A stretch of DNA of 64,000 nt from Eledone cirrhosa (lineage: Eukaryota): assembly GCA_964016885.1 (NCBI GenBank), contig OZ024754.1, forward strand, positions 44,764,001-44,828,000, read 5' to 3'. Both the position numbers and the translations under genes were made by a program. Below are positions 1,937 to 43,845 of the stretch, piece after piece; the first letter of the stretch is position 1, and each line of letters starts with the position of its first letter. Under the pieces are notes generated by a model. The model searched no databases. It saw only the letters and a list, made by a program, of their open reading frames with translations, and was not told where the DNA came from.

Positions 1937-2117
1937 ATAGTTATGTAATAAACAACATAAGACAATTATTCCATTTACCAGTGGTTTCTTAAAAGCAAAA
2001 GATTTTGCTTTCAATCCTCAGAATGAAATTCTGAAAGGATTGAAAGCAAAATCTTTTGCTTTTAAGAAACCACTGGTAAATGGAATAATTGCCTTATGTT
2101 GTTTATTACATAACTAT
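1937..2117. repeat. 82-bp-arm fold-back palindrome containing the 3' half of a hammerhead-like motif
   Basis: Arms 1937-2018 and 2036-2117 with 1 mismatch; inner CAGAAT-GAA-ATTCTG hairpin; GAAA-GCAAAA-TC-TTTTGC-TT follows at 2042-2061. Confidence 0.85.
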
Positions 2118-2164
2118 ATATATATATATATTTACTATTACACTCGTCTCTGAAATGGCTGTAA

Positions 2165-2264
2165 TAATTATTTCTACTTTTTGGCACAAGGCCACCAATT
2201 ATCCCAGTGTATTACTGGTACTTTATTTTATCGACCCTGTAAGGATGAAAGGCAAAGTTAACCT
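2165..2264 (-). mobile_element. SINE family A, 3' half
   Basis: Reverse complement of the family body and tail. Confidence 0.85.
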
Positions 2265-2749
2265 TTTAATTAATTAATGAAGAATTTTTAAAGCATTTGC
2301 TAAAATTATTAATAATACCATTAAGATTGCATTTGTAATATAATTTAACAAAAGTTTCTTATATAAAATTATAGAATGTTTTAATAAAAATAGGAACCGT
2401 TTAAAATGGATGGTTTTGGAGGCAGTTTGGAGCATATATTTGTGTATAACAAAGATATGAATGAAATGTTTTTCAAGACATTTAGGCTTTAGGAAGGTCC
2501 AAGGCTGGAGCCCACTTATATTATAACCCACATGTTTCATGGCTATATCTCTATCTTCTACCTGTGATATGTTCTCTTACAAGATAGCACTGCCAAGAAA
2601 AAAAGCATCACTAAGGATTTTCTAAACATATTTTAAAATCTGTGGCTCACCTAAAACTAATGATCCAATGGTTGTATCAACAAACATCACTTGAACTGCT
2701 AGAAATAGTAAAAAAACAAAGGACCTCAAATCCCTGCTGACTGTCTAAA

Positions 2750-2971
2750 CCCGTTAGCATTTAAATTGGTCATATCGAGCCAGAATTCTCTCACCCCTTT
2801 CTGTTCAAACCAGCCATAACCGGCCGCTCATACTGACGTTGTGGTATTGTTTTCAAAATAAATAATATCATCATCAAAATCTCGTAGATTCGATATTACT
2901 ACTTAATGTGAGATAAAGCCTTTATTGTGAAAATACAATAGAAAATATAGAGTAATGGAAATGCCAAAGGG
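2750..2971. mobile_element. piggyBac-like MITE (TTAA-flanked)
   Basis: TAAA-CCCGTTAGCATT ... AATGCCAAAGGG-TTAA; interior matches 3658-3866 and, inverted, 38799-39011. Confidence 0.75.
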
Positions 2972-3271
2972 TTAAAGAAAATAAGACACATCGGATAAAC
3001 AATATGATGCGGGTGGAAGGAAAGGAACTGAAATTGATATTCAGGATTGGAATGACTAAACATAGAACTGCAAATGATGTGTGTGATGGTCTAAAGACTA
3101 ACTTGATTGACTCAGACATGGATGATATATGTGATGGTCTAAAGACTAACTTGATCAACTGTCATATGTGATGGTCTAAATAAACAATAGCAGCAGCAAC
3201 AACAACAACATACGTGTATATCAAGGTATTTAATTTTACTCATATATAATCTGTATTATTACCTTAAGTGA

Positions 3272-3985
3272 AGACAATGGCTTAGTGTGTCAGACTTACG
3301 ATTATAATATTGTGGGTTCAATTCCTGGACCAGATGGCAAGTTGTATTCTTGAGCAAGACACTTCATTTCACATTGTTTCAGTCTACTCAGCTGAAAATG
3401 TCTACCAGCAGTAGCTGTGGGTTAACCTTGTAATAGACTGGTGTCTTGTTCTGGGTTGAGTTTTGTACTCTCAGTCACATAGCTCCATTGAAACCAATAT
3501 AAGCAGTCTGGTGAGACACTGAGCTCGGGACAGACTTAAAAGTCTGTGATAGACTGGCATCTTGTCTTGGGCAAGTCTTATACTTTCAGTTGCTTGACTC
3601 CAAAGAACCAAGGATAAACACTTGCCTGATGAACTTCCTAACTTGGGACAGACTTAACCCTTTAGCATTTAAACCAGCTGTACCCTGGCCAGAATTCCCT
3701 CACCTCTTTCTGTTCAAACTGGCTGTAACTGGTTGCTCATACTGATGTTAAGGTATTGTTCTCAAAATAAGTAATATTAAAATCTCATAGATTCCATATT
3801 ATGTGAGATAAAGCCTTTACCATGAAAATACAATTGTAAATAAAGAGTAATGTGAATGTTAAAGAGTTAAACCTGTGACAGATGTCTTGTCCAACATGGG
3901 GTCGTGTACTCTCAGTCACTTAAATCCAATATAATAGGAATAAGCACTGGCCTGATGAGCCCTTGGGCTTGGAACAGTCTTTAAC
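3272..3985 (+). mobile_element. CORE-type tRNA-derived SINE with triplicated 3' part, interrupted by a MITE
   Basis: TGGCTTAGTG / GGTTCAATTCC boxes, CORE-like TTGAGCAAGACACTT; 3' segment recurs at about 3430, 3545 and 3872. Confidence 0.65.
3658..3866. mobile_element. piggyBac-like MITE
   Basis: TTAA(3654-3657)-CCCTTTAGCATT ... AATGTTAAAGAG-TTAA(3867-3870). Confidence 0.8.
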
Positions 3986-4674
3986 TTTTTTTTATATTCT
4001 CTAAAAATAATTTTGATGTGTTTTCCTTCTGGTTATTCATTAAATTCAGAAGTTATGGGTCGACACAAAAAATTCTATCTTGCCATCTGACTAAAAAGAT
4101 CTGGAGACTCTGGATGTTAAAGGCCTCCAAAGTCTTAACATAGACTTCCTGGTAGATGTGGAATTTAGTTTGGAAGCTGAGATGGTTGTTTCTAAAGACT
4201 CTCTTTTCTAAACCTTCCAGATGATGCAGATATTTCTATGAGGCAGGTTTGAATTTCCTCAACTAGTGAAGTATTGCTAGAAATATCTAGATATCTATCT
4301 GGATTGGAGGGCAGTGTGCCAAAATGGTTTTCTCTTTGCTTTTGTATGAAGTGTAATGTTGGTTGGTAACAAGACATGAGCATTAAATGTGGGGGATATT
4401 TGTTGTCATGGAAAGGAAGGAAAGGTTTAGCTGGCTCTGTTGGATATGTGGAGGATGGAAGGAAAGGATGTTCTGTTGGATGTGTAATGTCAAGGTGAAG
4501 AATGTAAACACTTTGGAGATTTGTTTGGACATCATAGGACAGTGTGGGAGAGAGAGAGAGAGAGAAACAAATAAAGGGCTACTGTTCCTAGAAAAACAAT
4601 CCAACTATAAAGACAGTTATAGAATATTCTTCATTTCTTGGAATTACCGAAATATTTAGCCAGTAGTTATTAGC

Positions 4675-41068: not shown

Positions 41069-41395
41069 GATCTAGAATATTGTTTCTTTGGAACCCAAGG
41101 CATACATTTTATACACAAATCTGTCATCGAAATAAATTCTCCCCCCAAAACATCGTCAATCCACAATGGCCGCTTAAACTTATAATTTGCTGACTCTTGA
41201 GGTTTCTGGTTGAGACTTGCAGTCGTAAGAAAACCCATAGCGAGATCCAAACATCAAAATGACAATAATAATAATAATGATTTCATTTATTGGCTACAAG
41301 GGCCGACATATCGGGACACAATACAAAGACAGGGACAAAAGCTTGCTGGGTCTTGGGGGCAGCACCTACAAACAAAAGCTAAGGAAAACCTGTAA

Positions 41396-41624
41396 TAATT
41401 GTTTATACTTTAGGCACAAAGCCAGCAATTTTGAGGAGACGGGATAGTCGATTAAATCGACACCAGTGCATCACTGGTACTTTTTTTATCGACCCCCACC
41501 TCTCCGTAAGAATGAAAGGTGAAGCTAACTTCGGCGGGATTTGAAATCAGAACGTAAAGAGCCATAACTCTATGCCGCGAAGCATGGTATTCGACGCTCT
41601 ATCGATGCTACCAATCCACCACCC
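41396..41624 (-). mobile_element. SINE family A, full length
   Basis: Reverse-complement head, body and tail. Confidence 0.9.
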
Positions 41625-42252
41625 TTGTAACGATAATAATAATAATAATAACAATAATAATGATAACTTCCTATAACGACATATGGAGGGGGCGACGATA
41701 CAAAGACAGTGACAGGGGGGGGGGGGGGGGGTTACAATAAAATTGAATGAAATTACACAGCAACAAAAACATTTAACAATGAAAGAATATAAAAATAAAA
41801 TAAATATAATAAAATAAATATAATGAGTTTTACTATTCCCACAAAAAAACGGTAGAAAGAAAATGACGGAGAAGAAGAAATAAAATTCCCGAATGAATCT
41901 GGGACCCTCTCAATCATACATCGCATTGAAATATAGATCGATAATATATATATATATATATATGTATATATATATATATATATATATATATATATATATA
42001 TATATATATATATATATATATATATATATAAGGAGAAATAGAGATATTATGACAATGAGAAAGAAAATTGTTTCTTTAGAAAATTGTTTATATGTACATA
42101 CACACAAACACACTTATATATATATATATATATATATATATATATATATATATATATATATATATATATATATATGTATATATATATATATATATATATA
42201 TATATATAGTTACGAAACATAAGTCAATTGCATGAACTCATAATCCTTTATT

Positions 42253-42310
42253 TACTGGTATATATATTTCGATGATAGCCATTGAATGGCTATGACCTCA
42301 TCAGGCAGTT
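42253..42310 (-). ncRNA. Type I minimal hammerhead ribozyme (one mismatch at the base of stem I)
   Basis: Minus strand: ACUGC-CUGAUGA-GGUCAUAGCCA-UUCAA-UGGCUAUCAUC-GAA-AUAUAUAU-A|CCAGU. Confidence 0.7.
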
Positions 42311-42414
42311 AGTCAGTTCTTAGATATGCCAGCTCTGTGTTTATAGTGTTGATGGTATCAGAGTCTTGGGACATATATATATACATATATATATATATAT
42401 ATGTATATATATAT

Positions 42415-42616
42415 ATAAAGAAGGGAGTGTGGTAAGGAACCAGGTGGACCATAACGTACCAGAGTACTCGATATTATGGGTAGTAGAGTGGGTAATAGGA
42501 AAAGAGTCAGGACCCCGGCGGCTGAGCTCCGGCCGTTTCGACAGCTATTTCTGCGTTCAGAAATAGCTGTCGAAACGGCCGGAGCTCAGCCGTCGGGGTC
42601 CTGATTCTTTTCCTAT
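42415..42616 (-). mobile_element. Fold-back element family P1
   Basis: Arms 42495-42553 and 42558-42616, in (TA)n. Confidence 0.85.
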
Positions 42617-43657
42617 ATATATATATATATATATATACACACGCGTGCGCACACACACACATATATATATATATACAGATGATCGGGAGTATGAGGGTGT
42701 TGATGAAGTTGACTGACGACGATGATGATGATGGTGATGATGATGATGGTGATGATGATGACGGTGACGATGATGATGATGGTGATTAGGTCAATTATGT
42801 GATGATGATGATGAGATTGAGAGCGATGCAGAGCAGACTCATCGTTGTCATCATCATCATCATCATTATCAGGAAGAGAGGGTGGACGATAATGACGATG
42901 ATAAAGTTATGATGATGATAATGAGAAGGAAGGGGAGGTTGAGGTGGAGGAGGAGTGTTGGTAGTAATAATATTAAGGATGCTGAAGATGAGGATGAGGG
43001 GAAGGAGTAGGGAGTGGATTGTGATTAATGAAGAGGATAACTTTGTGGGATGGCAGCAAGATTCTGATATAAATAGTATTGGTTTATTTGTATTTACTTT
43101 TAATAAAGGGGAGAGAAAGAGAGGGAGAGAGCGGGAGAGAGAGAGGGAGAGGGCGGGAGAGAGAGAGAGGGAGAGAGGGGGAGAGAGGGAGAGAGGGAGA
43201 GAGGGGGGTAAATAGAAACAAATAGAGAGTGATATATATGTGTGTGTGAGACCCGGGTTTAATCGGGGGTAAACCACAGTAAGTAAGGTACTCAATACAT
43301 TAGTAGAGTATATATATGTATATATCTTACTATCTTACCTGATCCCGCCGACTGGCTGAGGCCATGCTGGGGCACCACCAACACACACACATACACACAC
43401 ACACACACATATATATATATATATGGATATCGCGAAAAATGGTGAACGCAAAAATACTTTGCTTAAACCATCAACCTGTTCAAACAGTATACGTTCGCTA
43501 TACGTTTATTCATATTATTGCATATATATATATATATATATATATATATATATATATGTATGTTTGAAATGTATGTATGTATATATAACTTTTATAGAGT
43601 CCTCTCAGGATATATATATATATCCACACATTAACACATATTCGTATATATATATAC

Positions 43658-43845
43658 CAAGTTTAATATAGAAATTGCTTCTACAGGACTAGAACTGTTT
43701 TATTCAAAAGAAATCATCAGGACTGATTTCCTTCGAATGAAACAGTTCTAGTCCTGTAGAAGCCATTTCTATATTAAACTTGATCTCTACACTCTACTAA
43801 TGTATTGAGTACCTTACTAACTATGGTTACCCTGGATTGAACTGT
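43658..43845 (+). mobile_element. Fold-back element family P2 centred on CTGATGA
   Basis: Arms 43658-43716 and 43724-43782; TGA-TTTCCTTCGAAT-GAAAC-AGTTCTA-GTC; related pieces at 43250-43310 and 50095-50200. Confidence 0.75.

Follow-up and report, generated by a model that had tools for sequence, protein, structure and literature searches.

The window analysed here is a (TA)n-rich stretch of 64,000 nucleotides (nt) from the 3.0 Gb genome of Eledone cirrhosa (contig OZ024754.1, positions 44,764,001 to 44,828,000; G000:C14:44764001-44828000), in which several palindromes are associated with hammerhead ribozyme sequences. These palindromes are very short head-to-head copies of the pseudo-long terminal repeat (pLTR) ends of Penelope-like elements (PLEs) and probably arise when two cDNAs, primed on both strands of nicked (TA)n, run off the 5' end of a capped RNA and are joined end to end. 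The identity of the families, their linkage to open reading frames (ORFs), two alternative 3' ends, the pairing of long with short arms, arms of the same subfamily, varied centres, a 5' wall at which copies stop in families A and D and, in family D, a TATA box at -30 with an excess of an extra G are all directly observed.

Palindromes and their parent elements

The first-pass annotation had listed six long palindromes from four unrelated families, at 1937-2117, 17121-17244, 17392-17512, 23750-23863, 42495-42616 and 43658-43782. All are present and fall into families A (those starting at 17392, 23750 and 42495), B (1937), C (17121) and D (43658). The five that were scored reach arm scores of 43-75, far above the best of 9-12 in 10 block shuffles; 23750-23863, which has a 10-nt deletion in one arm, was detected by eye and with BLAST. 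Each palindrome consists of one long-tailed and one short-tailed arm, arranged head-to-head in or beside (TA)n, and carries a one-sided extension of 65-85 nt, the PLE tail. Substitutions and indels set the two arms apart, and the raw Illumina reads of three libraries contain opposite-strand joints of family D; an assembly artefact is therefore ruled out as the source of the structure at the level of the family. This read check, which the first-pass annotation had proposed for the palindromes, covered the family-level joints of D.

Exact-pattern matches in the genome amount to 51,960 for family A, 4,786 for B, 32,907 for C and 8,835 for D, totals that count patterns and not copies. Family copies terminate in (TA)n at one of two alternative 3' ends, short or long, and TA-type repeats follow the long tails in 154/160 (A), 25/25 (D), 20/20 (C) and 13/13 (B) copies. 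Long copies extend upstream into ORFs with the motifs of Hydra-clade PLEs, as judged by motif inspection with the criteria of PMC8557442 (section 11). By these motifs, a reverse transcriptase (RT) with a C-terminal GIY-YIG endonuclease is encoded in A, C and D (in D as frameshifted pieces), while the endonuclease end only is found in B. The CxCX5C linker and the CxxC and CxH motifs around E and N occur in all four families, and RWR and DKT in A and D, the sequence recovered for B and C being without N-termini; a 710-amino acid frame of family A (locus L123) combines RWR, DKT, YRDD and CxCX5C. The Pfam GIY-YIG model matches the family A parent weakly (E = 0.069) and misses the cut-off. A genome search with this model tied none of the 30 loci examined to A-D via a shared 3' untranslated region (UTR); genome-wide there are 10,597 GIY-YIG candidates, with PLE families other than A-D as the top matches. 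Judged from their sequence, families A-D are pLTR ends of Hydra-clade PLEs. The hammerhead reading and the link to PLEs, both put forward in the first-pass annotation, are thereby upheld: each of the four families has parents in which a complete ribozyme and a Hydra-type RT/GIY-YIG ORF are found.

By inspection, the families have type I hammerheads with GAAA, NUH and stems I and III, and the core is canonical in B, C and D. The family A core reads (U/C)UGANAA, i.e., the U3-A8 type, with a stem II that covaries between subfamilies and a loop II of about 35 nt. Because of this core, few real matches result when a canonical CTGANGA is required ahead of the family A half: there are 71 in all, 30 of them were viewed, and most of these were chance occurrences or palindrome centres. 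Most family A arms are devoid of the 5' core, and exact patterns for the 3' half and the 5' core are found 51,960 and 5,470 times genome-wide, a ratio that is rough since the two patterns differ. Minimum-energy folding mostly did not recover the predicted active fold, and an Rfam scan of the window had no hammerhead among the 150 of 587 matches listed, which are dominated by microRNA models on simple repeats. The ends of the copies are not set by ribozyme cleavage: arm edges of long-tailed copies fall on the cut site in 1/30 cases in A and 0/26 in D, counts that are silent on the catalytic ability of the predicted ribozymes. Some family A subfamilies (L131, L139, L140, L153, L157 and others) have C3 together with A8, which breaks the 3-8 pair; these ribozymes may be inactive, yet the subfamilies have been amplified.

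The 5' wall and a proposed transcription start

The wall is sharp in A and D and weak in B and C. Positions are numbered from +1, which in family A is the A of TTAGTCC in loop II and in family D the initial G of GGCTTTC, which precedes the core by 7-8 nt. Among 183 family A arm edges, 14 lie past -10, 77 at -10 to +3 and 92 further 3', so that 169/183 are at -10 or downstream; these counts, like the pair counts below, omit the query-selected loci L001-L060 and L121-L157 and include loci that were selected with a pattern containing an obligatory GAAAC. Of the 109 edges of family D, 13 fall on +1 and 8 on +2; the stretch from -1 to -5 has none, and 7 lie further upstream, so that 102/109 are at +1 or downstream. 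Some rows of this set represent a single tandem array. When genome hits reaching +1 were counted by hand, a break within 12 nt was noted in about 79 of the first 100 listed for D, and a break within 14 nt in 69 of 100 listed for A. Raw-read depth on the D parent (X21) is about 7,000 within the ribozyme and drops to 96 immediately 5' of +1, with a fixed read-start site, likely a restriction-site-associated DNA (RAD) cut site, at 961, upstream of the drop. Mapping on the family A parent is confounded by reads from fixed internal starts (likely RAD cut sites) and is not used as support. Edges of family C start close to a conserved YCACT, which is located about 83 nt upstream of the core. How the wall relates to a complete element can be followed in the family A tandem L351, where an inverted long-ended arm is succeeded by +1, the pLTR tail, the 5' UTR, an ATG at +232 (231 nt past the wall), an open frame of 786 amino acids and a short-ended pLTR.

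The first-pass annotation had formulated a breakpoint rule whereby each palindrome is centred on a hammerhead core and, in four of them, the CUGANGA half is replaced by the mirror of the 3' half. Centres are indeed tightly clustered in A and D, but the rule fails as stated. The replacement does not apply to the palindrome at 1937, which keeps CTGAGGA-TT-GAAA intact in its long arm (minus strand, 2021), and a seventh, perfect palindrome (14522-14582, family C) has its turning point some 83 nt 5' of the core. The intact ribozyme that had been placed at 14414 for the family of the 17121 palindrome does exist, with its core starting at 14471 on the minus strand. Nor is the wall fixed by the ribozyme core, since its position differs between families: loop II in A, shortly before the core in D, well upstream in C and ill-defined in B. 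Inversion is not restricted to the ribozyme either; multi-kb copies share the head-to-head layout and have their junctions far from it. As a positional rule the wall is likely new; it holds strongly in one family and partially in two, and is unclear in the fourth.

From the fixed TATA spacing and the cap-like extra G in family D, together with the presence of promoters in pLTRs, the wall may be read as a transcription start. The TATA sequence TATAAATA begins exactly at -30 in 4/4 D references long enough to include this position, the spacer sequences not being alike, and the box has the same spacing in further copies of one subfamily. Truncated D copies often have a G at -1, where the parents have C or T. 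This extra G is present in 32/57 non-parent hits (15/33 without ambiguous cases, p = 1.3e-3, by hand tally) and in 11/21 D arms ending at +1/+2, and the consensus of D loose ends, built from 306 contigs, terminates in GGGCTTTC. Initiator (Inr)-like words stand at the walls of A (TTAGT/TCAGT) and C (TCACT). Promoters are contained in Penelope pLTRs (PMC2377424); passages of PMC3846280 also place promoters in pLTRs and name TCACT as an Inr-like word in the pLTR of Adineta, and for full-length L1 insertions passages of PMC11702581 describe such an extra G as a mark of the cap.

If the wall is a transcription start, the pLTR would contain a Pol II promoter from which transcription begins within the hammerhead in family A, at the 5' edge of the hammerhead in D and further upstream in C. 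An RT start motif would lie at both transcript ends, and priming on the 5' copy would produce a run-off cDNA of 65-145 nt, which may be likened to the minus-strand strong-stop DNA of LTR elements. A dimeric RT-endonuclease would extend both target strands from two internal starts on the same or a sibling RNA, and the two cDNA 3' ends would then be trimmed and joined, bluntly or via 1-2 nt of microhomology. It is tempting, with the odds slightly against it, to regard the palindromes as a PLE strong-stop product: using the long and short starts on the 5' copy of the tail, a dimeric RT would prime both target strands on a capped sense RNA and copy up to the cap, after which the two run-off cDNAs would be joined. 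The mini-palindromes, tens of thousands in number, would then preserve a fossil record of where PLE transcription starts. Some of these starts would be inside the ribozyme, leaving the leading mRNA end with half a hammerhead and no cleavage in cis.

Joining of the arms and rival explanations

Pair geometry was tested in family A only, D pairs not being reliably scored. A long arm is combined with a short one in 59/60 and 56/58 family A pairs (two tallies). Both arms share their subfamily tag in 55/57 pairs, compared with 23 % at random, and therefore derive from one RNA or from sibling RNAs. The further-reaching arm is the long one in 30 pairs and the short one in 20 (p = 0.20), and the overlap within a pair is 0-2 nt in 33/60. 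Palindrome centres vary from copy to copy, with gaps of 7-62 nt in 20 pairs from the first 100 A-pattern matches. In our analysis these pairs are best accounted for by a pair of primed cDNAs linked through their 3' ends. Such a process matches the anole PLE in vitro, for which passages of PMC11167929 report extension of both strands, two internal start sites, a predicted dimer and dispensable ribozyme cleavage.

The first-pass annotation had favoured a different origin, in which the RT stalls at the hammerhead and the cDNA folds back on its hairpin to prime its own second strand; for the present pairs, the product would later have to be cut at the short end. Self-priming is also how junction palindromes are interpreted in passages of PMC3846280, and it would explain why the centres of A and D lie in or adjoin the ribozyme. 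A short first cDNA, however, cannot template the tail, so that the long arm must reach further 5', and this is violated in 33 of the 56 long+short pairs of family A, the short arm reaching further in 19 and both ending within 2 nt of each other in 14. The long arm extends at least 3 nt further 5' in the other 23 pairs, which are compatible with snap-back (8 of them strictly), and a 6-nt loop junction recurs in about 11/100 rows (hand count); zero-loop junctions on self-complementary words recur as well. The native stem II loop is not kept between family A arms, the D wall is met after the full ribozyme has been copied, and neither the C wall, some 83 nt off, nor the distant inversions of the multi-kb copies would be expected from a stall at the ribozyme. 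We therefore consider self-priming an improbable general explanation, although snap-back may serve as a minority route. A variant proposed for Adineta PLEs (passages of PMC3846280), self-priming on antisense RNA from a bidirectional pLTR promoter, is barely credible here: it predicts neither an extra G on the sense strand behind a sense TATA box nor long and short arms that are trimmed independently.

The twin cDNAs could be end-joined as proposed and the wall still be due to an RT barrier, either protein or RNA structure, or to an RNA cut other than by the ribozyme. The walls are near structured pLTR RNA, a region that the anole PLE protein binds according to passages of PMC11167929, and neither a cap-like G nor a consistent TATA box is seen in A or C. 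The fixed TATA spacing and the extra-G excess in D are foreign to such a barrier, and the walls coincide with Inr-like words instead of the 3' foot of a helix, the presumable place of a stall; we hold this explanation to be rather unlikely. A very high copy number, a D junction that recurs in at least 7 sampled loci and the thought that stubs keeping +1 might retain an internal promoter and re-transpose could suggest MITE-like or SINE-like (miniature inverted-repeat or short interspersed) non-autonomous units amplified ready-made. This is very improbable given that the centres vary between copies, that the ends are asymmetric and that the subfamily tags match those of ORF-bearing parents. Uniform copies with the symmetric terminal inverted repeats of a MITE were not found among copies whose centres vary and whose ends are asymmetric.

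To return to joined run-off cDNAs from a capped RNA, several observations weigh against this origin. In family A the wall is smeared from -5 to +1 and an extra G is not clearly seen (edge +1 has 5 G, 5 C and 5 A; about 11/69 by hand count). The TATA-like word of this family shares positions with stem II and is missing from the CG subfamily, whose loose ends in raw reads mostly run into the upstream sequence of the parent. Family C edges spread broadly and no TATA box is found at -30, and family B consists mostly of long copies (14/38 past -100) with scattered centres. Within D, 17 of the 32 extra-G cases possibly derive from the partner arm, and RTs are able to add untemplated bases at template ends. 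Few references exist for D and the CG subfamily, so that some edge calls are noisy, and the 23 snap-back-compatible pairs of family A must be counted here as well.

Known relatives and further features of the window

The head-to-head layout and the ribozyme variant are already known. Hydra-clade PLEs with a C-terminal endonuclease (C-terminal EN+), as described in passages of Craig et al. 2021 (PMC8557442), share RWK-type and DKT motifs, CxCX5C, CxxC/CxH around E and N, hammerheads and (TA)n targets, and equally an inverted 5'-truncated copy with a one-sided tail. Their tail measures 30-40 nt, in contrast to 65-85 nt here, and they differ from family A with its U3-A8 (in part C3/A8) core and loop II of about 35 nt; those passages do not mention pLTR-only stubs that number in the tens of thousands and share a fixed 5' wall. 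Penelope insertions of Adineta vaga, in passages of PMC3846280, likewise have head-to-head inverted pLTRs, junction palindromes, an optional tail and a TATA box plus TCACT in the pLTR. They are few in number and were attributed to self-priming on an antisense template, whereas the junction statistics here favour two sense-templated cDNAs and the centre is tied to a predicted start site. In the anole Poseidon PLE (Frangieh et al. 2024, PMC11167929), the tail is determined by two internal RT starts, the enzyme cuts and extends each of the two strands, and ribozyme cleavage is dispensable; the passages of that study do not cover inverted junctions, 5' run-off or transcription start. Passages of Cervera and de la Pena 2014 (PMC4209133) describe minimal type I hammerheads in PLE pLTRs, the U3-A8 variant and opposite-strand pairs 100-700 bp apart. 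They contain no breakpoint rule, and a descriptor of the full motif would presumably miss half-ribozyme stubs.

L1 twin priming, as described in passages of PMC11702581, also involves priming by both target strands, joining of the ends and a capped 5' run-off that leaves an extra G. There, adjacent and mostly non-overlapping RNA segments are copied, whereas here the same segment is copied twice, which results in a palindrome. Animal non-LTR retrozymes (bioRxiv 10.64898/2026.07.22.740005, in part) are short, non-coding, PLE-derived and endowed with type I hammerheads. They form direct tandem repeats with complete ribozymes; such units were not found here, where pairs are inverted and most family A arms have no 5' core. 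Our literature search, comprising titles, the beginnings of abstracts and passages, and extending neither to the 2005-2006 PLE reviews nor to most subscription papers nor to any supplements (including the Hydra files of PMC8557442), did not reveal a link between PLE inversion centres and transcription start or a cap-like G. The words "hammerhead" and "Hydra" are both absent from the main text of an octopus repeat annotation (PMC13282606), as far as its passages go. The origin of PLE inverted repeats and the question of a sense or antisense template are left open in passages of PMC3846280 and PMC8557442. A fixed wall with a cap-like G and the nearly strict long+short rule would provide single-base predictions for PLE copying, and abundant palindromes that annotation might classify as MITEs, as SINEs or as hairpins of microRNAs would be by-products of retrotransposition.

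The family B stub (1870-2117, minus strand) is made up of palindrome 1937-2117 and a tail at 1870-1936; the minus strand is the long arm, its core is of the minimal hammerhead type and the parent ORF is in L251. Family C is represented by the insertion at 14372-14654 (minus), which contains the intact type I hammerhead and palindrome 14522-14582 and has a plus arm with an internal deletion and a tail, and by a stub at 17035-17244 (minus; tail 17035-17120), whose palindrome turns at GAAA/stem III, far 3' of the main wall of the family. Three stubs belong to family A. The one at 17392-17587 (plus) has a short arm edge at +2, a long arm edge at +4 and a tail at 17513-17587. That at 23673-23863 (minus) has its 10-nt deletion in the minus long arm, a tail at 23673-23749 and a short arm starting at +1. 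In the third, of the CG-loop subfamily (42417-42616, minus), both arms start from about +5 with 4 filler nt, and the tail is at 42417-42494. The family D stub (43658-43845, plus) combines a minus short arm, with CTGATGA at 43720 and its start at +5, and a long arm that leads from +14 into the tail at 43783-43845. Less complete are a lone short-ended family A arm without inverted partner (25331-25385, plus), a family D arm fragment that begins at the core (50143-50199, minus), a family D tail fragment (43257-43312, minus) and an old degenerate head-to-head pair of family A (50272-50352, strand unassigned), which was read by eye.

Elsewhere in the genome, a family D stub with identical flanks occurs at many dispersed loci (L218, L220, L221, L223, L225, L229, L234, L235, L349) and is probably carried within another repeat. 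Tandem arrays with a unit of about 70 nt derive from the family D end (L222, L224). Joins between families, D to A at GAAAC and the A tail to the C start (L041:1400-1600; L339), suggest template switches or the joining of different RNAs.

A fifth hammerhead family is present in the window at 42205-42320 (minus). Its canonical core is intact at 42304, stem II is long and the sequence ends in (TA)n; this element is likely another PLE end. At about 37556-38178 (plus) the window contains a homeobox exon, which from its motif we take to be Phox2-like, and the PLE insertions may sit in introns of that gene. Two inverted copies, 88 % alike, of a 3' coding fragment resembling a long interspersed nuclear element (LINE) are located at 52355-53300 and 56447-57397. 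Finally, an abundant dispersed SINE-like repeat, unrelated to the palindromes, occupies positions 151-356, 825-1019, 2162-2264, 12687-12813, 19855-20057, 41411-41649, 48267-48404 and 59751-59935.

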